DNA of 62,903 nt, the filler included, from Basidiobolus ranarum (taxonomy: Eukaryota), in assembly GCA_040143965.1 (NCBI GenBank). It is 30 parts of 30 records of this genome, joined end to end, with 100 filler letters (N's around TTAATTAATTAA, not from the genome) between each part and the next. Parts side by side here need not be neighbours in the genome. Positions count along the whole stretch, not along the records: positions 46,246 to 48,241 come from JASJQH010010830.1; 29 more parts are not named here. One strand, given 5' to 3'. The position numbers and the translations under genes were made by a program. The notes beneath the pieces are model-generated. The model saw only the letters and a program-made list of their open reading frames with translations. It did not search any database and was not told where the DNA came from. Shown here in pieces: positions 2,778-46,879 of this stretch. Positions within the stretch are counted from its first letter, which is position 1. Every line of letters starts with the position of its first letter.

Positions 2778-3128
2778 TGTTGAAATTAGGTAAATAACAA
2801 CTCATTTTTTAGTAGTTAGTGTATCTATATTCTAATTATTTAGCACTCAATTCTGCCATTCAAAATGTGCACTTATTTCTCTAATTGATTGAAATATCAG
2901 TTAGATCACTTTTGCCAATTTTCACCATTTTCTCAAAACTTCTTTAAATCACTTGAAATTTTCACCCATGCTTAACAGGCATTTTTGTTTCCATCTATGA
3001 GTGTCCAATAAATCTATTTCATAGGAAACTATGAATAGGACATATTCAATTCAATCAAACTTATGTGTCTAATTGGCAAATCCAAATCTTGCCCAAAACA
3101 CTTCCAAATTCACCAAACATGTTTAACA
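2778..3128 (+). mobile_element. LTR family C copy
   Basis: PPT AGCTGAGTGGGAA directly upstream; TGTTGAAATTAGG...TTTAACA; inverted homolog at 3748-4088. Confidence 0.85.
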
Positions 3129-3141
3129 GGTTATGAGTCCC
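3129..3141 (+). other. Primer-binding site (tRNA-iMet half-molecule type), one mismatch
   Basis: GGTTATGAGTCCC abuts the LTR end; a gag-like start MSTSTITKVFASPE follows at about 3160. Confidence 0.65.
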
Positions 3142-3289
3142 AAGCTAGCTGCTACAGGAATGTCTACAAGTACCATTACCAAGGTTTTTGCATCCCCAGA
3201 GTTGTTAGTTGAGAGAAGACTTTAACCTTTGGAAATTCAAGATGCAAATGATGCTAGAAGACAAGGACCTAAACACTGCTTACTCAGTT

Positions 3290-13055: not shown

Positions 13056-14168
13056 TTATGATGGAGTGTAAGTGGGAGGTTGAACTGGCCTTGAACAGGA
13101 CCTCGAGATATCATGAGCAATGTGGATGCCATCATCATTCGATATTCTGAATTTCTTGTTGACGGATGTCGGTATTGTGTAGACAACCGGTGAGGTATAG
13201 GTTGGAGGAAGCACTGGTCTTGAACAAGTAGCTGTCGACTCAGCGAGTAAAATTCCGCCTTCGTTGACAACTCTGAGGTCCTGCTTGAGATACGATGAAA
13301 GTGGTAGTTCCACAGTGTCCATCCCTAGGAACGAGGGAAGCGTAATGTTGCTGGTAAGATAGTTAAACGGTGGAATATAGGTGCGGTCATAGTCACCCTT
13401 AGGCAAGTAACCATCAAGAGCCAGCATATAGCCATTTCCACCTTTGGTGATATTAGCAGAATAATTGAAGTCATCGTATAAACGTTGAGCATGACGTGAG
13501 GTCGCAGGAGAGATATGTGTAATGGGTCCCCATTTGTCGGAGCCTTCTAATCTGTAATACTGATCGCCATATATTACACGTCTGGGAACTCTCAAGCTCT
13601 CGGGACTCATGCCATTGCTAAAATCCTCGATGAACTGATAGAAATAATTGGCCGGTACTTGCATGAGTTCACTATAATCGGGGCCAAGAATCTTACCGAC
13701 CAGCTGCCACTCATTGTTCTTGTATATAGAAGTAACGTATATAATATCTTTGCCTTCCCGGTTAATCTCCACCTTCAGCCAATACTTCGTCCCGGGTTTC
13801 CAAAAGTCCCCATGTACAGTAATTTGCGCAGCTGGACCCTCCGCACAATTTTTCTCACATGTTACAAAGTGAGCGTCAGGATGAGCTTCGATAATTTTGG
13901 CGGTATGATTTCCAAGGTTCCATACAGTAAAGATGGTGTTATGGTCATTTTCGGCGACTCTTTGCAAACCAAAGTAACCTAGCCACCAGGCAGCTCCACA
14001 GAAGTACGTATTTACTCCGTCATAGCCCACGGGAATTTCAATTGATGTTACAAAGCCGGTGATTGAACCTCCAATGGGGCCGTTTACGAAAACGTCCAAG
14101 GCATCAATATACTTAGCGCAAAGAAGGAGGGCAGAAGCCGTCGTTGTCAGGAGCAATTTGAACTTCAT
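13056..14168 (-). CDS. Secreted DUF3472/DUF5077-like protein, 370 aa, intronless
   Basis: Intact ORF; signal peptide MKFKLLLTTTASALLLCA; motifs TYF..GYFGLQ..IFTVW..EG..W.PG..Y..FIEDF..R..Y.DQY recalled from bacterial DUF3472 proteins; TATAAA about 40 bp upstream. Confidence 0.75.
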   Translation of the reverse strand: MKFKLLLTTTASALLLCAKYIDALDVFVNGPIGGSITGFVTSIEIPVGYDGVNTYFCGAAWWLGYFGLQRVAENDHNTIFTVWNLGNHTAKIIEAHPDAHFVTCEKNCAEGPAAQITVHGDFWKPGTKYWLKVEINREGKDIIYVTSIYKNNEWQLVGKILGPDYSELMQVPANYFYQFIEDFSNGMSPESLRVPRRVIYGDQYYRLEGSDKWGPITHISPATSRHAQRLYDDFNYSANITKGGNGYMLALDGYLPKGDYDRTYIPPFNYLTSNITLPSFLGMDTVELPLSSYLKQDLRVVNEGGILLAESTATCSRPVLPPTYTSPVVYTIPTSVNKKFRISNDDGIHIAHDISRSCSRPVQPPTYTPS

Positions 14169-14739
14169 GATAAAAATTTAGTGTGGTCAGCAATCAAGAA
14201 CGCAGACTTTATATGGGAAAAGCTTACTACTATAGAAGGAAAAAGCTCATGCTCTCTTCTAAATGGAATGGTTGTGTGGCTGATAATACGTTAAGACCAC
14301 ATGGGTCACCTATTTAGAAGTTTTGTTCCTGGATAATAATCATGTGGTGAGTGGCCACGTAAAAAAATCAGGCTTATCTAAGGTTTGTTTTGAACAAGGC
14401 ATTTCTGGATGAAACATTTTTCCTTCCAATTTGTCTTGGAAAGCCTCTTATTTTCTCGGTATCAGGTCTAGATAAAGAACTGCCACATGGGTACTTGTGC
14501 TTCAACTGTATATAAAAGCTACGTATTTCCAGTATCAGCAGTATTCACAAGATTGACATCATAAAGTTAGTAAGCATGAAAACGTTACTTCCGCTAGTGT
14601 TATTGCCAGCATTATCCTCTGTGGCCCATGGAATGAACANNNNNNNNNNNNNNNNNNNNNNNNNNNNNNNNNNNNNNNNNNNNTTAATTAATTAANNNNN
14701 NNNNNNNNNNNNNNNNNNNNNNNNNNNNNNNNNNNNNNN

Positions 14740-19099: not shown

Positions 19100-19957
19100 G
19101 CACTATCACAGAGAAAAAGTCCATTGATTTTTGAGTTATGTCTGATAAGTCAGGTATGTGCATATGTAGAAACTAAATACAACAAAATTCTTGTATTTTT
19201 TGATTCTCATTATGGCTGGAATACTATGCCTAAAATATCTAAATAAAGGCATGCATATTAATTCAAATTTCTATAGTGGTTAACACAAAAGGTTGCCAGA
19301 AATAAAATAACACATGCCAAATATTGTTGAAGTTTATTATCTTTATCATATTTGTTATCTCCATCTTCATATACCTAACTATTTCATATGTCACATATAA
19401 GTTAGTCAAGATTACTTAGTCAAATATCACTTAACTGCAAATCAGAACATTTATTATATATATATGTGAATAATTTGAGAGTTAGCAATTCCATATTGAA
19501 AGTTTCAAACTTATCTAAGTTGTCCCAAAGATAGCGCATTTTACTCCCACAGATGTTCTGAACACAACCCCAGTGTTAGTTTTCTGTATTTCACCAAAAT
19601 GTATAAATACTTCATTTCTGGAAAATAAATAATTTTCTCACAGAAGCTATTCACAACTCCACTTTTCTAAAGTTTCTCCAAACAGCCCATATTTTCCCAA
19701 TAAATATGAGGATCAATAATTTACTATCTATGATAACTGTCATAATACCATCAAGAAGACACCATCTCACCATCAAAATTGCTGGCAGAATACAAGCCAC
19801 CAATCATCTGATGGTCCTCTGATTGTTTTGTAATCCAGAAGGGTGGATTCAATCTGGATCAGATCCAAGCCACCACTCATCTGATGGTCCTCTGATTGTT
19901 TTGTAATCCAGCAGGGTGGATTTAATCTGGATCAAATTGGTTCTACTCTTGTTAGAG
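19100..19957 (+). mobile_element. CACTA-like right arm, interrupted by a solo LTR, with an internal ~75-bp tandem duplication
   Basis: Reverse complement of 19980-20400; duplicated AAGCCACCA.TCATCTGATGGTCC...TGGATC; degenerate end TTGTTAGAG. Confidence 0.75.
19325..19702 (+). mobile_element. Solo LTR family A with 5-bp TSD AATAT
   Basis: AATAT at 19320-19324 and 19703-19707; empty site visible at 33665-33685. Confidence 0.9.
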
Positions 19958-19979
19958 AAGAAAGGTCATAAGATCATAT

Positions 19980-20584
19980 CACTAACTAAGATAAAATCAA
20001 TTTGATCCGGATCAGATCCACCCTTCTAAATTCCAAAACCATGAGAGAACCAGCACAATATTGGTGGCTTGCATTCTGCCAGGGATTTTGATGGTGTGAT
20101 GGTGGTTTCTTGATGGTGTTTTAATGGTATTCACATATGTTAAATAATTGAACCACATACTTGACATGTGTTATTAATTTCAGGCAATTTTTGCAAAATA
20201 TAAATTTCAAATGGCAAATTATTGGGTATACTGCTGTAGGAATTCAAATTATTATGCATGCCTTTATTTAGATATTTTAGGCTTTGTATTCCAGCCATAA
20301 TGAGAATCAAAAAATACAAGAATCTCATTGAGTTTAGTCTCTACATATGCACATACTTGACTGATCAGACATAACTCAACAACATCAATATACTTTACCA
20401 GCAAACTAACAGTGGAAAAATTGCTTAACATCTGAAATTTGAATAGCACTGACACTTGGCAAATAGGTGACTCTTATTACAATTCACAATAAGAATAAGC
20501 TCTTGGATTTTGGCAAATTTCTGTAAAGAATTCAGCCAATACATCCCCAACTTGCAGTCAACAAATGTCCTGCCACAAGTAGAG
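19980..20584 (-). mobile_element. CACTA-like right arm (terminus CACTAAC)
   Basis: Colinear with 11624-12205. Confidence 0.85.
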
Positions 20585-27438: not shown

Positions 27439-27514
27439 GAAAAACACCAATTTCTCTAATTCTTCAAATCACTTCCAATAGGCTCCCAAATACTTCAACA
27501 GGTTATGAGCCCTG
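27439..27514 (+). mobile_element. LTR family B 3' end plus PBS GGTTATGAGCCCTG (27501-27514)
   Basis: CTTCAACA directly followed by the complement of the tRNA-iMet anticodon arm CAGGGCUCAUAACC. Confidence 0.85.
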
Positions 27515-27531
27515 ACCTCGCACTCTTTGCT

Positions 27532-29356
27532 ATGTGTACTTCTCAAATTTATGGAGCTTTTCCCTCTTCTGAAAAATTAGATGGAACCAATTATCAAGTT
27601 TGGAAAATTAACATGAAGATGCTGCTGTAAGAAAAAGGACTTTGGGACACTGTTGTAGGAGAACAAAACAATGCAAAACTATCTGAAACCAAAGTTTTAC
27701 TCCAGGTTAAAACAGAACAAATTGCTAATTCAATGTCAAAGAGCTAAAACTACCAAGAAGGTATGAAAAGCCTTGAACAACATCTACCAAACATGTTCTG
27801 CTGTCAGCACAATATTTCTAAGAAGACAATTCTTTAACTTAAAGATGAAGCCAGGAGCAGACATTAAATCACTAATTAACAAAGTCACTATTTTAGGAGA
27901 TGAACTGAAATGCATTGGAGTACCTACTATTGATCAAGATATCATAGTAACAGTTCTGAATAGCCTGCCACACAAGTTTCATAGCCTAGTAATGGCTCTA
28001 GAATCAAGAACTGAAAATTTGACTTTAAATTATGTATATGTCAGACTTCGGGATCAAGATTTATGTAAATTAGGATTAAACCAAACGAATGAGGAAAATG
28101 CTTTAATAGACCATGGGAAACCTTCCTATAAAGGTAAACAGCACTTTAAGAAGAAAAGTAACACATTCTGTGATAACTGTAAAAGAACTGGCCATTTAAG
28201 CAAAGTTTGATTTAAAAGAATTGCAATAGAAGAAAAACATACTGAATCTGGAAATGTGGCTAGAACTGAAAATCACTTGTTCATATCTGCCCTATCTATG
28301 ACTACCAACAAGGATTCTCAGGTGTGGTATATTGATTCTTGAGTCTCCCAATATTTCACAAAACAAAATCATTGGTTTGTGAGTTATGAAACAATCTCAA
28401 TTAGAAAGTTTTCATGGGAGATGACTGCACATTGGATGCTATTGGAATGGGAACAATTCAAGTCAATTTAAGTGGAGCTTCTGAAGAGAAAGTGTTTGCT
28501 TTTAAGGATGTATTACATGTTCCAGATATTGCCAAGAATCTAATATCTGTGTGCAAGGCCAGCTCAGAAGGGCTAAGATTCAATTTTGATAAGTTGGGAT
28601 GCACCATCACTGATCAAAATTATTTAGCGTTGGGAGAAAAGGATCAGAACTTATACAAACTTACATATAATCCATGAGGTTTATGTGTAAATATAAGTTA
28701 TTCCAATCAAAAAGCTATTCAATTATGGCATAAGAGATTTGGCCATATTTGATTTGATTATTTGAGAAAAATGATCAAAAATTGCCTAATTTCTGGAATT
28801 CAAATTAACCCCCCAACCAACATGGAAATTTGTGAGGATTGTATATATGGAAAACAAGCCAGGCAACCATTCAAGAGCTCTGGTTTAACCAAATCTGTGA
28901 AAAAGTTGGATCTAATTCATTCAGATTTATGTGGACCTATGCAAAATTTATCTTTAGGTGGGATAAAATATTTAATCACATTAATTGAACATATATAAGA
29001 TACACTTAAGTCTACTTCATAGAAAGAAAAGAAGAAACTCTCTCTATCTTTGGAGATTTTAAAACACTTGTGGAGACTGAAACTGGAACTAAAGTCAAGA
29101 AAATGCATACTGATAATGGTGGAGAATAAACTTCAACACTATTTAGGCACTTTTGCAAAGTGCATGCAATCAAGCAAGACACTACTGCCCCCTATTCACC
29201 TTAATAAAGTGGACTTACTGAAAGAGCTAACAGGACTATAATAGAAATGGCAAGATCTTTGATAAATGCACAAAGTGTATCTCATAACTTTTGGGTGGAA
29301 TCTGTTGCTACAGCTATATATCTGAAGAATAGGAGTTTTACTAGAAGTCTGTCTAA
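27532..29356 (+). pseudogene. Ty1/copia gag-protease-integrase, degenerate
   Basis: KLDGTNYQVWK, LNSLP..F..LV.ALE, CDNCKRTGH knuckle, WYIDS, CEDCIYGKQ, LDLIHSDLCGP. Confidence 0.93.
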
Positions 29357-30222: not shown

Positions 30223-31299
30223 ATGGGTATTCTTGACCTCGTTCCACCTGGTGTTGTCACTGGAGATAACCTTCGAAAGATATTAGCATACGCTAGTGAG
30301 CATCAATTTGCCATCCCTGCTGTGAATTGTACCTCCTCTAGTACCATCAATGCAGTCTTGGAAGCGGCTAGAGATATCAAGGCACCGGTGATCGTACAAT
30401 TCTCCAATGGTGGTGCTGCTTATTACGCAGGTAAAGGGATAAGTAATGAAGGTCAAAGGGCCTCTATCTTAGGTGCTATCGCCGGTGCACATCATGTTCG
30501 TACTGTTGCCAAAGAGTATGGTATACCGGTAATACTTCACTCTGATCATTGTGCGAAGAAATTATTACCCTGGTTTGATGGAATGTTAAAAGCGGATGAA
30601 GCCTATTTCAAACAACATGGTGAACCACTCTTCTCCTCTCATATGTTAGATCTATCCGAAGAACCCAAAGAAGAGAATATCAAGATTTGTATGGATTATT
30701 TGAAGAGAATGGCACCCATGGGATGTCTTTTAGAAATGGAAATTGGTATCACCGGTGGTGAAGAAGATGGTGTTGATAATAGTGGTGTAGATAATGCTTC
30801 CTTATTCACCCAACCCGAAGATATTTGGGATGTTTATAGGAATTTCAGTACTATCACCGATTTATTCACTATTGCTGCCGCTTTCGGTAACGTACATGGT
30901 GTTTATAAACCAGGTAATGTTGTATTGGAACCACAACTTCTGGGTAAACATCAAGTCTACGTCCAGGAGAAACTCGGTTCTAAAAGTAATAAACCAGTTT
31001 GGTTCGTATTCCACGGTGGTTCTGGTTCAACTGAACAAGAGATTCAAACTGCCGTATCTTATGGTGTTATAAAGATGAATGTCGATACCGATACTCAATG
31101 GGCATATTGGGAAGGTTTAAAGAATTATTACGAATCGAAGAAAGGTTATCTACAACATCAAATTGGTAACCCTGATGGTGCTGATAAACCGAACAAGAAA
31201 TATTATGATCCCAGAGTGTTTGTACGTGAATCCGAGAAGACCATGATAAAGAGAGTACAAGAAGCATGTAAAGCCCTCAACAATGTAAACACCCTGTAG
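30223..31299 (+). CDS. FBA1: Fructose-bisphosphate aldolase class II, 358 aa, intronless
   Basis: Complete ORF; HSDHCAKKLLPWFDG, FSSHMLDLSEE, EIGITGGEEDG, GNVHGVYKPGNV, VFHGGSGS, KMNVDTD, PNKKYYDPR. Confidence 0.98.
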   Translation: MGILDLVPPGVVTGDNLRKILAYASEHQFAIPAVNCTSSSTINAVLEAARDIKAPVIVQFSNGGAAYYAGKGISNEGQRASILGAIAGAHHVRTVAKEYGIPVILHSDHCAKKLLPWFDGMLKADEAYFKQHGEPLFSSHMLDLSEEPKEENIKICMDYLKRMAPMGCLLEMEIGITGGEEDGVDNSGVDNASLFTQPEDIWDVYRNFSTITDLFTIAAAFGNVHGVYKPGNVVLEPQLLGKHQVYVQEKLGSKSNKPVWFVFHGGSGSTEQEIQTAVSYGVIKMNVDTDTQWAYWEGLKNYYESKKGYLQHQIGNPDGADKPNKKYYDPRVFVRESEKTMIKRVQEACKALNNVNTL

Positions 31300-31558
31300 A
31301 TTCTCCCCTCCCCCTTCTTCGCAATTTCTTGTAGGAAATAAAGTGTTCATTCTATTTTAGCTTGAAAATCATGCTATTTGCTTTTTAATATTTGGGTATT
31401 GTTAATAAATTGGCATGATTTATGTACATTGGGATATTAACATGTTGAAGTGAAATNNNNNNNNNNNNNNNNNNNNNNNNNNNNNNNNNNNNNNNNNNNN
31501 TTAATTAATTAANNNNNNNNNNNNNNNNNNNNNNNNNNNNNNNNNNNNNNNNNNNNGA

Positions 31559-33556
31559 GGTGATGAACTGGAGCGGCGTATCTCGAATCGGATGATGAGT
31601 GAAAAGGAGCTGCTAGTTGATCCAGCCTTTTTCTTCGCACTGAAAGAAGAAATCCCAGAGATAGCACATGTAGAGATTTTAACCAAAACTGGTCGTAGTC
31701 TCAATGAACTGACTCAATACCGCTACCAAGTGATTATTCGAGTTGGGGCTAGTGAAGATAGCCAAGTGATTGAGGACTGGGTGGACTATCAGACATCTGA
31801 TATTACTTTGGATTATATCAAGCAGACTCTTAAAAGCGGACAGAAGGAGTATTTCGCCCTTGAAAATGTCATTAATAGACGATTGATAAAGGAGGTTACT
31901 TTAGTCAAGCTCTTGGAATCGCACCAATCACAAAATTGGTCGGTCGCAAAAATTAAAGCTTTACAAAACGAGATGGTACTCGCAGGTGTAGAAGTTGAGG
32001 ATCTTTTGGTTTTGAGTGAGGAAACAGATTATAATGTGGATATAAGTTGGAATCGCCAGAAAAATGATGGATGTCTGGATGTAATCTTCTTTAAAAGAGA
32101 GTTACCTGCTTCAGCGAAATACCGCTTCAAAGAGCCAAACTACAGCGTATGGAAATGGCGATCATATGGAAATAACCCAATGCATGAGACTGTAAACAAG
32201 ATGTTTGTTCCACATTTGCGTGAGCATCTCCGTACAGTATTACCAAAATTTATGATACCTAGCGCCATTATCATTTTGGAATCGTTGCCACTTATGCAAA
32301 ATGGCAAAATTAATCGTGGAGCATTACCGGCTCCTACTTCTCTTCACACAGGCGTTACCGTAGATTATGTAGAGCCAAGAAACATACTTGAAGAGACTCT
32401 TGGAGGTATATTTGCGGAAGTACTTGGATTCAAACGAGTCGGTATTCATGATAATTTCTTTGACATGGGTGGCCACTCTTTATCTGCAACTAGAGTGATG
32501 TCACGTATTCGAGTTGTATTGGGGCAAGAAGTACCGTTAAAAATGCTGTTTGAGGCTCCGAGTATTGCATCTCTGAGCGAAAGATTAGAGTCTACTATTA
32601 ATAAGATCAACGTAGCCGACAATACTATACCAGTGTTGAACAAACTGGCTAATCGAAATCACTTACCATTGTCTTTTGCACAAGAAAGACTTTGGTTTAT
32701 GAATGAACTGCTCCCTAACAGTAGTATTTACAATATACCATTTGCTTTGACACTTTTAGGCGAGCTAAACGTTGATGCGCTGAAGAAATCTATACTTGAT
32801 ATTATCGTTCGACACGAAGCGTTACGAACAACATTCGTAATGTTGAATAACGAGCCAGTTCAAACTTTCAGAGCAGCCTCAAGTTTTTCAACCTCACTCA
32901 TCCAAGACGTTGATGGAGCAGATGATCCAGAGCTTGTCAAAGCAATATTTGCTGAAGAGTCTAGAAAGCCATTCGATTTAGCAATTGGGCCACTGATTAG
33001 AGTAAAAATAATACGCATTAGCCGCGAAAAACATGTGCTTATAGTCGTAACTCATCATATTGTGTCTGATGGTTGGTCAGTTGCTGTCTTACAAAAAGAG
33101 CTATCAGCATTATATGAATCAAATTCCCTAGGAAAACCATCTCCGTTATCTGACCCTGTGATTCAATATGCTGATTTTGCTGTATGGCAACGACAATGGC
33201 TACAAGGTGATAACCTTGACATACAGATGAGATATTGGAAGGAGCAGCTGAGTGACTTTAATACATTAGAATTACCCACTGACTTTGTCCGACCAGCTGT
33301 ACTCAGTTATCAAGCAAATATTCAGGAGATGAACTTCTCTTCGGCGTTAACTAATCAGTTAAAAGAGCTGAGCAAGCTTGAGACTTCTACCTTGTACATG
33401 ACCCTGTTGACAGCATTTGAGATATTGCTTTTCAAATACACTGGACAGGAAGACATTGCCATCGGCTCTCCTATTGCTAATCGTAATCGTGAAGAGATAG
33501 AAGCACTAATCGGGTTCTTTGTCAACACTCAAGTGATTCGGGTTCAGGTGGATCGT
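31559..33556 (+). CDS. Non-ribosomal peptide synthetase, internal fragment: N-methyltransferase tail, A subdomain, PCP, condensation domain
   Basis: Open across the whole contig; ELLVDPAFF and NELTQYRY (embedded N-MT), NGKINR (A10), DNFFDMGGHSL (PCP Ser), LSFAQERLWF, HHIVSDGWS, IQYADFAVWQ, LIGFFVNT. Confidence 0.95.
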
Positions 33557-36592: not shown

Positions 36593-36798
36593 GCTAATTT
36601 CATTCCATATGTATTTAACCATGTACAATATTATACATTTTATGTTTAAATAAAACCCGATCAGAGAATAAAAAGTTTTCTTCTTTAATATCTCACCTGC
36701 CCGGAGGTTCCTATCGTATGTTCCCTAACGTTACCAGTATTGATTATGATTTTTAATGTTATGATATTAAAAATGAGATACAGTGAGTAAAAAAACGA

Positions 36799-36870
36799 GG
36801 GCTCAACCGGGAATTGAACCCGGGACCTCCACGACCCGAACGAGGAATCATACGACTAGACCATTGAGCC
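36799..36870 (-). tRNA. tRNA-Pro(CGG)
   Basis: Acceptor stem GGCTCAA/TTGAGCC; anticodon loop TT-CGG-GT; T arm CCGGG-TTCAATT-CCCGG; T7 Pol III terminator just downstream (36789-36795). Confidence 0.9.
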
Positions 36871-37854
36871 CTGACTTATAGAGATAAAAATTGGAAATGG
36901 CCATTATTCTACAGAGGTTGGTTCCTGAGGTGAGTGCAATTTTGGGACTTGATTCACTGATAAATTGATTGATTAATTTTATTTCGATTGTGCTATTTTT
37001 ATAGGGTTGATCAGGGGAAAATCGAGTGGCATTCCTGCCGGATTTGGGAGTATGCTAATTTCGAAACATGTATATAACACTGACGGCCTGTTTCCGATGT
37101 CTTGTACTTTTGTCTTCACTGTTGGTTCGTTTTGAAATTTATACATATGTTAGAACAATAGTATGGAAATATCTACCTAAAATTTAGTAATGATTCGTCC
37201 AGTAGTTCTGGAGATATATGCATTTCTTTTTCTGTTTCGGTGATTGTGAGACGTGTGGGAGAGGTGTAGAGATGAAACTTGGTGGAGGTCAAGGTTTGCT
37301 TAAGCACTATATGTGTGCAAAATATTGAGTTGATTGAGACATTATGTTGTCTCCAAAATTGCCATCGCTTTTGTCTGATAATCCAATTTCGTAACAATTC
37401 TCTCAAGATCTGGTGAACTTTCATTGCTGGTGAGATGTACTCAGTATTATAAAGAATACTCAAAATCTCTTAGTTGTTAAATACTTCGTCTTTGATGGAG
37501 CTTCATGTACAACATCCATAAATACAAAGCCTGCATAGAAGTATTGCGACTTATTACAATCCAATAGTAAGTGTATCATTTGTCACAACACAATGTTTGT
37601 ACTTGCTTAAAATCAGATATTTTGTCTTTGATAAAAATAATGAGAGATATGGTCAACGCATCGGCACAATTTCCCACAAACCAAATAAATGGTTACTGGT
37701 AGTTGGTTCCTAATTGTTGACTTTCCATCTAGAGCACTTAAGACAACTAAATAGNNNNNNNNNNNNNNNNNNNNNNNNNNNNNNNNNNNNNNNNNNNNTT
37801 AATTAATTAANNNNNNNNNNNNNNNNNNNNNNNNNNNNNNNNNNNNNNNNNNNN

Positions 37855-38035
37855 TGCTTGTATAGCTGAAATGCCAAAGTACCATACATTGACAGACTAG
37901 GTTAAGGTTCCCTAGCAATATAGGCATAGCATACAAGGACTGGTAGCTCAGTGCTTAGAGCACCTTGCTAGAGTGAAGTAGGTCCCAGGTTCAAATCCTG
38001 GCCAGACCAATATTTCTCCCTAAAAAAATTCAACA
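37855..38035 (+). mobile_element. 3' part of LTR family D carrying a tRNA-like cassette (37937-38009)
   Basis: Cloverleaf-like GGACTGG..GCTC AGTGCTTA GAGC..CCAGG TTCAAAT CCTGG CCAGACC, then 26 bp to the LTR end TTCAACA; second copy at 46246-46327. Confidence 0.75.
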
Positions 38036-38042
38036 ATGTTTT

Positions 38043-38374
38043 TGTTGAAATTAGCATTATCTAAGCACCTATATGGTCCTATGTAGTTTAGTATTAAGTT
38101 GTCTTTTATTTTACTAAGATATTTGAAATTTACTTGGAAAATTTTTACCATATTAGAAATTCTCAAATATGTAGATTTTTTCCAACTTGTGCTAGAAGCC
38201 CCAAACTTTGCACACTTGTTCTTGCAACCTTCCTTAACATATTCTAAATGATAGTTATCTTACTTGTTGACAAAACCATAAAGGTGAACTTCCTACTCAA
38301 GAACTCAATCAGTGAAAACAAGCAATTTCTCTAATTTTCAAACCACTTCCAACAGGCTCCAAAATACTTCAACA
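38043..38374 (+). mobile_element. Solo LTR family B, near-TSD GTTTT/GTTAT
   Basis: TGTTGAAATTAGC...CTTCAACA; reverse complement of 53166-53510. Confidence 0.85.
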
Positions 38375-44148: not shown

Positions 44149-44648
44149 TGTCACTTATTTTGGAAGGATATGCTGATGCAGACTGGGCTAACTATACAGA
44201 AGACCATGAATCCAGAACTGGATATGTGTTTAAGCTAGCAGGTGGGCCAATAAGCTGGACTAGCAAGAAACAACAAACTGTTGCATTATCAACTACAGAA
44301 GCAAACTATATGGCAATCTCTATGGCTGTTCAAGAAGCTATATGGCAAAGGAGTCTTCTCAAGGAACTAGGATATGATCAAGGTAATCCTACCCCTATAT
44401 ATCAAGATAATATTAGTTGTATTCAGATCACCAAGAATCCCAAGCATCACTCAAGGATGAAACATATTGACATAAGACATAATTTTATACAAGAGAAAGT
44501 TCAAGACAAAGAAGTGAACTCCAATTATTGTAATACTGAACACATGCTTGCAGATATACTAACAAAACCACTAAAAACTTCAAGCTTTGAGAAGTTAATA
44601 GCAGGAATAGGCATTAGGAATATAAGCACAATGCTGAATACAAATTAA
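44149..44648 (+). pseudogene. Ty1/copia RNase H
   Basis: [53 protein letters not shown]. Confidence 0.95.
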
Positions 44649-46245: not shown

Positions 46246-46400
46246 GTTAGAGCACCTTGCTAGAGTGAAGGAGGCCCCAGGTTCAAATCTTGGCCAGACC
46301 AATATTTCTCCCTAAATAATTTCAATAGGTTATGAGCCCTGGTTAGTGCTAAATCTGGAAATTCTGCTTGATGGGGAATGTTGAAAGTCTGGTGACTTGT
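46246..46400 (+). mobile_element. TRIM-like element: LTR D end (to 46327), PBS (46328-46341), PPT (46369-46378), next LTR start TGTTGAAA (46379)
   Basis: tRNA-like 3' half, TTCAATA, GGTTATGAGCCCTG, short spacer, TGATGGGGAA, TGTTG. Confidence 0.7.
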
Positions 46401-46879
46401 GGAACAAGCAGTAATTCCCAACTGAGAGCCCAATTTTTACTCCAACTAAATGACCACAGAAATCCACTGGTCAAGAAGTGGCTAGTCAAACTATCTTCAA
46501 ATTAACTCTCTTGCTGGAAACTGATACAAGATGACCCTCTTGTTTCTGAACTAGCTTAACAACTGCATCAAAGAAAACAGCCCAAAATTGTTGCTGTAGA
46601 CTTTCAGCTAGATCTTTGAAAGCAATACCTATCCTCCAAGACGCCTTTTTTGATCCCCATTATACCAGGCTTTTGTCCTATTGTCCATTTGGTTTGTACT
46701 GTATATCTTCCTTTCTGCTTACTACCTTTACCCCTTAACACTGTATTTACACCCTTGTAACTAGATTATATTTGATATCAAGTTAAGTATGGATATGATC
46801 TGGTTTTGTCACACTATCTTAAAAGATTGATGTCATGATTGTCACTTTGTTTAGATTAGTATATAAACTAAATAAAGTC

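Follow-up and report, generated by a model that had tools for sequence, protein, structure and literature searches.

A Helenus-type TRIM with a tRNA-like cassette in its LTR in Basidiobolus ranarum, and its PBS-junction hybrids with three Copia families

The window, by which we mean the whole 62,903-nt stretch of DNA analysed, is drawn from assembly GCA_040143965.1 of Basidiobolus ranarum, a host that we take to belong to the Zoopagomycota, and consists of about 30 unrelated contigs of about 2 kb with N spacers between them. It contains two copies of a small LTR element with a tRNA-like cassette, together with pieces of Copia elements and a gene of the host. Copy 1 is on contig C10826 and copy 2 on contig C10830; both are cut on the 5′ side by the contig start, so that copy 2 is without cassette positions 1–17. 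The features are as follows.

3129–3142 (+): PBS of a Copia family B copy, the second candidate helper, on a separate contig
27501–28210 (+): PBS and decayed gag start of Copia family A, a candidate helper, on a separate contig (PF14223, E 3.6e-18)
30223–31299 (+): class II aldolase gene, used as a host marker only (91% identical to its Basidiobolus meristosporus counterpart; among the 120 matches listed of 1072, none from another genus exceeds 81%)
37855–38035 (+): TRIM LTR positions 102–282, copy 1 (96.7% to the observed complete solo LTR)
37937–38009 (+): tRNA-like cassette of copy 1, with A box, B box, short variable arm and nominal AGA (Rfam RF00005, ARAGORN)
37968–37971 (+): CTAG palindrome at anticodon-loop positions 32–35, a candidate kissing motif
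38029–38035 (+): LTR end TTCAACA of copy 1, 26 bp after the cassette
46246–46327 (+): 3′ part (LTR 201–282) of the 5′ LTR of copy 2
46246–46301 (+): cassette positions 18–73 of copy 2, with CTAG at 46260–46263
46328–46341 (+): 14-nt PBS of copy 2, complementary to the host initiator tRNA anticodon stem-loop, positions 27–40
46328–46378 (+): entire non-coding interior of copy 2, 51 bp, with four differences from the interior of the complete copy L021
46370–46378 (+): polypurine tract (PPT), its position unchanged in other interiors
46379–46421 (+): first 43 bp of the 3′ LTR of copy 2, from TGTTG, then a junction to an unrelated repeat

An earlier note on this DNA had described two tRNA-like cloverleafs, each shortly before an LTR end. 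Both cassettes are real, and the LTR of copy 1 ends at the distance from its cassette that had been given; unrelated sequence follows, which makes this LTR a 3′ or a solo LTR. The note had also placed a PBS, a PPT and a new TGTTG behind copy 2, and there the 5′ LTR does end at 46327 and the TGTTG does begin at 46379, where the 282-bp LTR starts again and not some different sequence. The PBS of copy 2 carries one CpG-type change, and that of L021 is intact (14/14). The anticodon arm that had been reported, CCTTG-CTAGAGT-GAAGG, holds for copy 2, which has GAAGG, but not for copy 1, which has GAAGT and also a change in the A box.

Searched for across the assembly, both the LTR–51 bp–LTR arrangement and 5-bp TSDs (at solo LTRs) were found, as the note had anticipated. 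The TRIM is about 615 bp long, with LTRs of 282 bp (280–283 bp, TGTTGA...TTCAACA) on either side of the 51-bp interior. The complete copy L021 measures 283 + 51 + 280 = 614 bp, has LTRs identical at 271 of 280 positions and has no coding capacity. A motif covering the B box and acceptor gave 253 matches genome-wide and its reversed control 0, showing that the matches do not arise by chance; the interior gave 21 matches, from which it follows that most copies are solo LTRs. Full copies were about 91–97% identical to the observed solo LTR (5th–95th percentile), indicating that the copies have decayed, and identical young copies could be collapsed in a fragmented assembly. The substitution spectrum is uninformative on CpG, the reference copy being CpG-free. 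A pattern combining B box and PBS, with which other half-iMet Helenus families in this genome were sought, returned 14 matches, 13 of them the same TRIM; the remaining one is a Copia B LTR in which a B box occurs by chance.

TSDs were counted at the 34 LTR copies that have both flanks unique, out of at least 115 distinct ones retrieved. An exact 5-bp TSD was present at 15 of the 34 (shuffles: mean 0.47, maximum 4), and at 21 with up to one mismatch (shuffles: mean 1.62, maximum 8); none of the 34 had a duplication of 4 or 6 bp. Complete elements with both flanks scored 3/5 (L021, no clean TSD) and 4/5 (the interrupted L157). L157, on contig C12063, is a complete TRIM into whose PBS a Copia A solo LTR has inserted backwards, duplicating 5 bp of the PBS. 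The association of cassette and LTR was assessed at 30 loci selected solely for their B box, namely the first 30 exact matches of the 253. All 33 cassette alignments at these loci extended into the LTR 3′ end; 20 also reached the LTR 5′ end, 10 were cut by an edge and three were 5′-truncated. The cassette is thus a component of the LTR, the opposite of the finding that the note had named as fatal to its reading.

The cassette of copy 1 scored 51 bits against the Rfam tRNA model (cut-off 29), and ARAGORN assigned it to Ser-AGA with a short variable arm, bearing out the earlier description of a nominal AGA without the Ser-type long arm. Rfam found a tRNA and no 5S in the cassette, which rules out Cassandra and Ajax. 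When the L021 cassette was compared with 84 host tRNA genes from 17 loci, part of the host set, the best match was Thr-AGT, at 49–50 of 73 letters; the cassette has A3–A70 and G31–G39 mispairs, and the host possesses true Ser-AGA genes. The four cloverleaf stems covary across 11 families (88% paired, double changes in 12 of 21 pairs, 0/500 shuffles), a pattern that could also stem from descent from different tRNAs. At minimum energy the cassette of copy 1 formed no cloverleaf (z −1.14) and its anticodon hairpin was unstable; in the fold of a putative 414-nt transcript the 5′ cassette was partly cloverleaf, with the loop mostly open, and the 3′ cassette was not.

Judged by its sequence, the cassette probably provides a Pol III start. 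No canonical Pol III terminator was found after it, and the TRIM has no T4 run on the sense strand; the latter is not significant, as 774 of 2000 shuffles were also without one, although this held for only 26 of 152 window stretches. One sequencing run, of presumed kind, contributed one contig of 164 nt that covers part of the TRIM and is uninformative either way. Annotation of this genome gains at least 250 false tRNA-Ser(AGA) candidates from the family.

Several observations on the genuine tRNA genes of this genome and on the remainder of the window stand apart from the TRIM. Clusters of tRNA genes are dense, with 16 genes of 16 anticodons in 5.2 kb, nine in 3.5 kb and eight in 3.5 kb (C8462:1-5200 (L081), C1890, C2156, C9679, C10466, C1207 and C3156); they partly share gene sets, in differing order. 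tRNA-Arg(TCG) is amplified alone on contigs C6885, C7711, C6957 and C1188 (L077–L079, L089), each with several near-identical copies 0.4–1.2 kb apart that have unrelated flanks and T-rich trailers and, as far as seen, do not constitute an LTR element. A tRNA-Pro(CGG)-like gene with mispairs (49 bits), unrelated to the TRIM, lies at 36797–36871 (−) in the window. Bacterial-type NRPS genes occur in Basidiobolus, and the window has an intronless NRPS-like fragment at 31557–33556 (+) with a methyltransferase-like end and carrier and condensation domains, recognised by eye. A 370-aa ORF at 13065–14177 (+) begins with what resembles a signal peptide and carries a repeated motif in its C-terminal part, and a long imperfect inverted repeat at 19879–20058 recurs elsewhere in the window and matches a miRNA model far below the cut-off.

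The TRIM PBS is complementary at all 14 positions to nucleotides 27–40 of the host iMet tRNA, for which there are four host genes. Three Copia families, to which we gave the labels A, B and C and whose gag was identified by Pfam PF14223 (for family B on L108, E 1.1e-14), have a 14-nt PBS identical to that of the TRIM. Pieces in L188, in L147 and at window positions 44154–44645 that we take, from Copia motifs, to be RT/RNase H-like gave no match in Pfam, and neither did the ORF after the PBS in the metagenome locus L210.

Identity of the PBS is accompanied by physical joins. Behind a TRIM LTR stood 11 of the 21 TRIM interiors, and the other 10 were preceded by the end of a Copia LTR (four of A, three of B and three of C). 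Nine junctions led from a TRIM LTR through the PBS into something other than the TRIM interior: seven into Copia gag (A 2, B 1, C 4), one into a fragment of an A LTR and one into unrecognised sequence. Reciprocal hybrid forms are therefore present for A, B and C, with every join at the PBS, and TRIM–Copia hybrid junctions total 17. The gag lying downstream of a TRIM LTR in C10616 is 87.7% identical to the Copia A gag of the window. Some arrangements are concatemer-like, with A LTR, TRIM and A gag in succession in C10616 and C12958, and a C 3′ end followed by the TRIM in C3167. In one case (L201) unrelated sequence, and not a TRIM LTR, comes after the interior. Among 23 matches in which a PPT adjoins a TRIM LTR, no Copia 3′ end was found before the TRIM LTR, as far as these were classified; this is expected if swaps occur at plus-strand transfer. 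In another fungus a hybrid of the same type was found in metagenome data, in which the LTR of TRIM L222/L229 is followed by Copia gag (L212), so that one and the same LTR leads, with the join at the PBS, into a TRIM interior in some copies and into Copia gag in others. A join that does not lie at the PBS was seen in L239 (contig C4094), where the end of a Copia C LTR runs straight into a piece of a Copia A LTR and a PBS.

Controls among the Copia families gave a different picture. From the 163 C gag starts, 100 were listed, and of these 97 lay behind a C LTR, three behind a TRIM LTR and none behind an A or B LTR. From the 156 A-LTR ends, 100 were likewise listed: 96 led into A, two into the TRIM, two into neither and none into C. 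Joins between A and C thus numbered 0 among 200 sampled junctions. Were partners drawn in proportion to abundance, all five foreign joins would involve the TRIM with a probability of about 3e-5, a rough value that treats the events as independent and takes its pool sizes from patterns that differ. Among the hybrids, the A LTR of L196 is incomplete, L147 forms a hetero-tandem and the rest are truncated; no hybrid is shown with a TSD, and integration of the hybrids as units is putative.

Plus-strand transfer is a general step of LTR reverse transcription, and the hybrids, as sequence arrangements, argue with good probability for co-packaging of TRIM and Copia RNA followed by intermolecular plus-strand transfer. 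That the junctions name three Copia helpers is fairly well supported, and mobilisation by Copia, which the earlier note had proposed from the common PBS, is supported by hybrid junctions as well as by PBS identity. The note had called these families local, and this part of its proposal did not stand: helpers and TRIM copies lie on separate contigs and are not physically local to each other. The accessible part of a study of sugar beet describes chimeras among non-autonomous families together with template switching (PMC13570524), so that the formation of hybrids in itself has a precedent.

The events that we envisage are these. Transcription by Pol III would start at the cassette of the 5′ LTR and continue at least as far as the 3′ LTR cassette, giving about 410 nt, and the cassette would thereby become the terminal repeat R. 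The RNA would be packaged in particles of Copia A, B and C, with the 5′ half of tRNA-iMet as primer. Plus-strand DNA ending in the 14-nt copy of the PBS would often anneal to the minus strand of another element, giving Copia LTR–PBS–TRIM, TRIM LTR–PBS–Copia gag and hetero-tandems. Copia integrase would insert the product, and recombination between LTRs would then leave mainly solo LTRs. In a more speculative step, the cloverleaf might act as RNA, its loops pairing two cassettes so as to bridge 5′ and 3′ ends or to dimerise RNAs.

This last step was suggested by the anticodon loop. The loop CTAGAGT was found in 84 of the 100 TRIM copies covering it, with CTAG at positions 32–35. Among 116 fungal Helenus LTRs in the accessible part of Data S1 of Kojima (2024), scored by eye, 107 have a Watson–Crick 4-nt palindrome in the loop (CTAG 50, CATG 53, ACGT 2, CCGG 1, ATAT 1), in some cases shifted by one base or more; a further five have a G–U version and four have none. 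Host tRNA types have a loop palindrome anywhere in 7/30 cases and at positions 32–35 in 3/30, and random 7-mers in 23%. As an out-of-sample test, metagenomes were scanned with a pattern that left the loop free, giving 31 loci, of which three ordinary tRNA genes were dropped and 28 Helenus-like LTR ends kept; eight BLAST clusters, one of them split in three, made 10 families. Palindromes were present at 25 of the 28 loci, many of which come from few related samples, and in seven of the 10 families (CATG 4, CTAG 2, TATA 1); each of the three exceptions is a single copy and differs from CTAG by one base. Double swaps between CTAG and CATG separate close relatives (L219 CATG versus L224 CTAG, LTRs 77% identical; L223 versus L227, 75%). 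Treated as pairs, positions 32–35 and 33–34 covary over 11 cassettes (72.7% paired, 0/500 shuffles for the score), a test of two pairs only from which relatedness among the cassettes has not been removed. The loop-palindrome pattern across fungal Helenus is solid.

In the metagenomes, L212, L222, L229, L232 and L210 are Helenus-type TRIMs outside the published set, one with a TATA loop. The TRIM L215 has two LTRs with a common U3 and different cassettes (CATG versus another loop), a hybrid of two subfamilies. The Copia A LTR (for example at window about 38188–38197 and in L003) has a 7-mer including CTAG in common with the TRIM loop, which may be chance; this 7-mer was not seen conserved in Copia B or C LTRs.

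Each transcript would carry two identical cassettes, so that any contact between their loops must be self-complementary, and for this reason we tentatively read the palindrome as a putative kissing loop that pairs RNA ends or two RNAs. A loop that pairs with itself leaves any pairing with Copia RNA unaccounted for. Somewhat more probably, the cassette is a Pol III promoter only, its palindrome inherited from a tRNA-Thr(AGT)-like ancestor and altered by chance changes without any role in pairing, an account that competes with the kissing-loop step alone. The loops of host Thr-AGT and Ser-AGA already start with CTAG, the CUAG self-duplex is weak (−1.4 kcal/mol), CACG and CATG interconvert through CpG decay, and the families are related, so that 107 of 116 does not amount to 116 events. 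Among Helenus families in the accessible part of Data S1, scored by eye, a palindrome occurs in only 23 of 43 from bivalves, and none was seen at positions 32–35 in those from teleosts. Yet CATG, which can arise only if the invariant U33 is lost, is as common as CTAG in the fungal set, where inspection by eye showed neither of the one-step intermediates, CTTG and CAAG; CCGG, ACGT, ATAT and TATA occur too. The double swaps between close relatives and the out-of-sample result, obtained without constraint on the loop, likewise speak against inheritance plus chance.

Other accounts concern the element and its hybrids. Recombination at the PBS, between integrated copies or free cDNAs outside particles, or assembly error could have produced the joins and would be silent on packaging; we consider this unlikely. 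Consistent with it are the want of a TSD at any hybrid, the concatemer-like structure of L147, C10616 and C12958, the fragmentation of the assembly into 13754 contigs and the tandem Copia arrays of this genome, whose PPT–LTR–PBS junctions were seen for families B and C (window about 2780–3140, L188). However, Copia A and C have the same PBS and offer about sevenfold more PBS junctions, and were never joined to each other; hybrids with visible flanks differ in those flanks and in their decay changes; and assembly overlaps are usually longer than 14 nt. It is highly improbable that the LTR with the tRNA-like cassette is that of an autonomous Copia subfamily with a C interior, of which the TRIM would be a deletion derivative. 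Four copies do show TRIM LTR, PBS and C gag in succession, three with visible and different 5′ flanks, but we rejected this account on the control in which nearly all listed C gag starts had their own LTR; moreover, no Copia 3′ end was found before the tRNA-bearing LTR, and the TRIM LTR also joins A and B. Least credible is a SINE, a dispersed tRNA pseudogene or a functional tRNA-Ser(AGA) family, which we regard as virtually excluded. The cassette does score as a tRNA, but it lies 183 bp inside the 282-bp LTR, runs into the LTR 3′ end in every alignment examined and is flanked, with its LTR, by TSDs of 5 bp, all of which rule out a SINE; against a functional tRNA, which we set aside, stand the missing long variable arm, the mispairs in the anticodon and acceptor stems and the true Ser-AGA genes of the host.

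In conclusion, the element is almost certainly a Helenus-type TRIM, as the earlier note had it, with all the sequence-level defining features present, and the best explanation of the data is probably that it parasitises several Copia families at once. The hybrids indicate several helpers rather than one co-evolving partner, and PBS-junction hybrids offer a simple readout of TRIM helpers from the genome only. It is conceivable, though we hold it with some reserve, that the fungal Helenus cassette is, beyond a promoter, a folded RNA module at either end of the transcript, its loop rebuilt in self-complementary form (CUAG, CAUG, CCGG, UAUA, ACGU), and that with it and a common half-tRNA PBS one TRIM rides several unrelated Copia families and swaps its own LTR onto them. 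Such a lineage would extend over both Zoopagomycota and Basidiomycota, whether through great age or through horizontal transfer. The loop palindrome makes an RNA-level role of a captured tRNA fold cheaply testable in vitro. In the literature searched, which did not cover subscription journals, we found no prior report of TRIM–Copia PBS hybrids or of the loop palindrome; searches found nothing on Basidiobolus copia retrotransposons with tRNA, and no report of a tRNA-like self-complementary anticodon loop in LTR-retrotransposon dimerization. The accessible parts of PMC12859917 and PMC11481361 do not report kissing loops or palindromes in TRIMs, and the matches listed for Helenus/TRIMp3 since 2024, and for chimeric partners of Cassandra and strand transfer, held nothing relevant.

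The published framework for these elements is that of Kojima (2024; PMC10886601), and what follows refers to its accessible part. Helenus (TRIMp3) is defined there by a tRNA-bearing LTR, PBS, PPT and TSD, with fungal hosts in Table 1/S1 only from Basidiomycota, priming in fungi predominantly by the iMet anticodon loop, LTRs of 106–284 bp, interiors from 51 bp and total lengths of 311–724, and with nominal Ser-AGA calls known for rust families. The cassette is treated as a promoter, no palindromes, dimers or kissing being named, and Pol III transcription is unvalidated for published Helenus too. Helpers were proposed because their PBS was similar and, in one case, because of an internal match; Cassandra has no known helper, and how the dependence of a TRIM on its autonomous partner is maintained is described as not known. 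The Basidiobolus TRIM resembles fungal Helenus in having the cassette near the LTR 3′ end, TG...CA ends, an iMet anticodon-loop PBS, a PPT, a 5-bp TSD, many solo LTRs and sizes within the published ranges. It differs in its host, Zoopagomycota by our assignment as opposed to the published Basidiomycota, which extends the range of Helenus to a second fungal phylum, and in the hybrids that link one TRIM to three Copia families. In the accessible part of Data S1 it is not among the 116 fungal LTRs by eye, and nine of 11 short motifs from it are absent, the other two being chance 9-mers; line breaks may hide single motifs. The closest cassette seen there by eye is that of Helenus-1_AmAr from Amylostereum areolatum, with 61/73 letters and one gap against L021 and the same CTAG loop; that element differs in having a 3′-end iMet PBS, an LTR of 209 bp and an interior of 85 bp, and likeness outside the cassette was not noticed by eye.

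Among more distant systems, as far as the accessible parts of the sources describe them, Cassandra is a TRIM that also has a Pol III cassette in its LTR and cassette-to-cassette transcription, but its cassette is 5S-derived and its hosts are plants (PMC10886601). Ty5 and Drosophila copia likewise use the initiator tRNA anticodon stem-loop as primer (PMC10886601), but are autonomous elements. For the putative kissing loop the nearest parallel is Ty1, in which hairpin loops pair between RNAs, starting dimerisation and packaging (Gamache, 2017; PMC5454406); Ty1 does so with two complementary 7-nt motifs, in contrast to the lone 4-nt palindrome in a tRNA-like fold to which we would ascribe such a role here.
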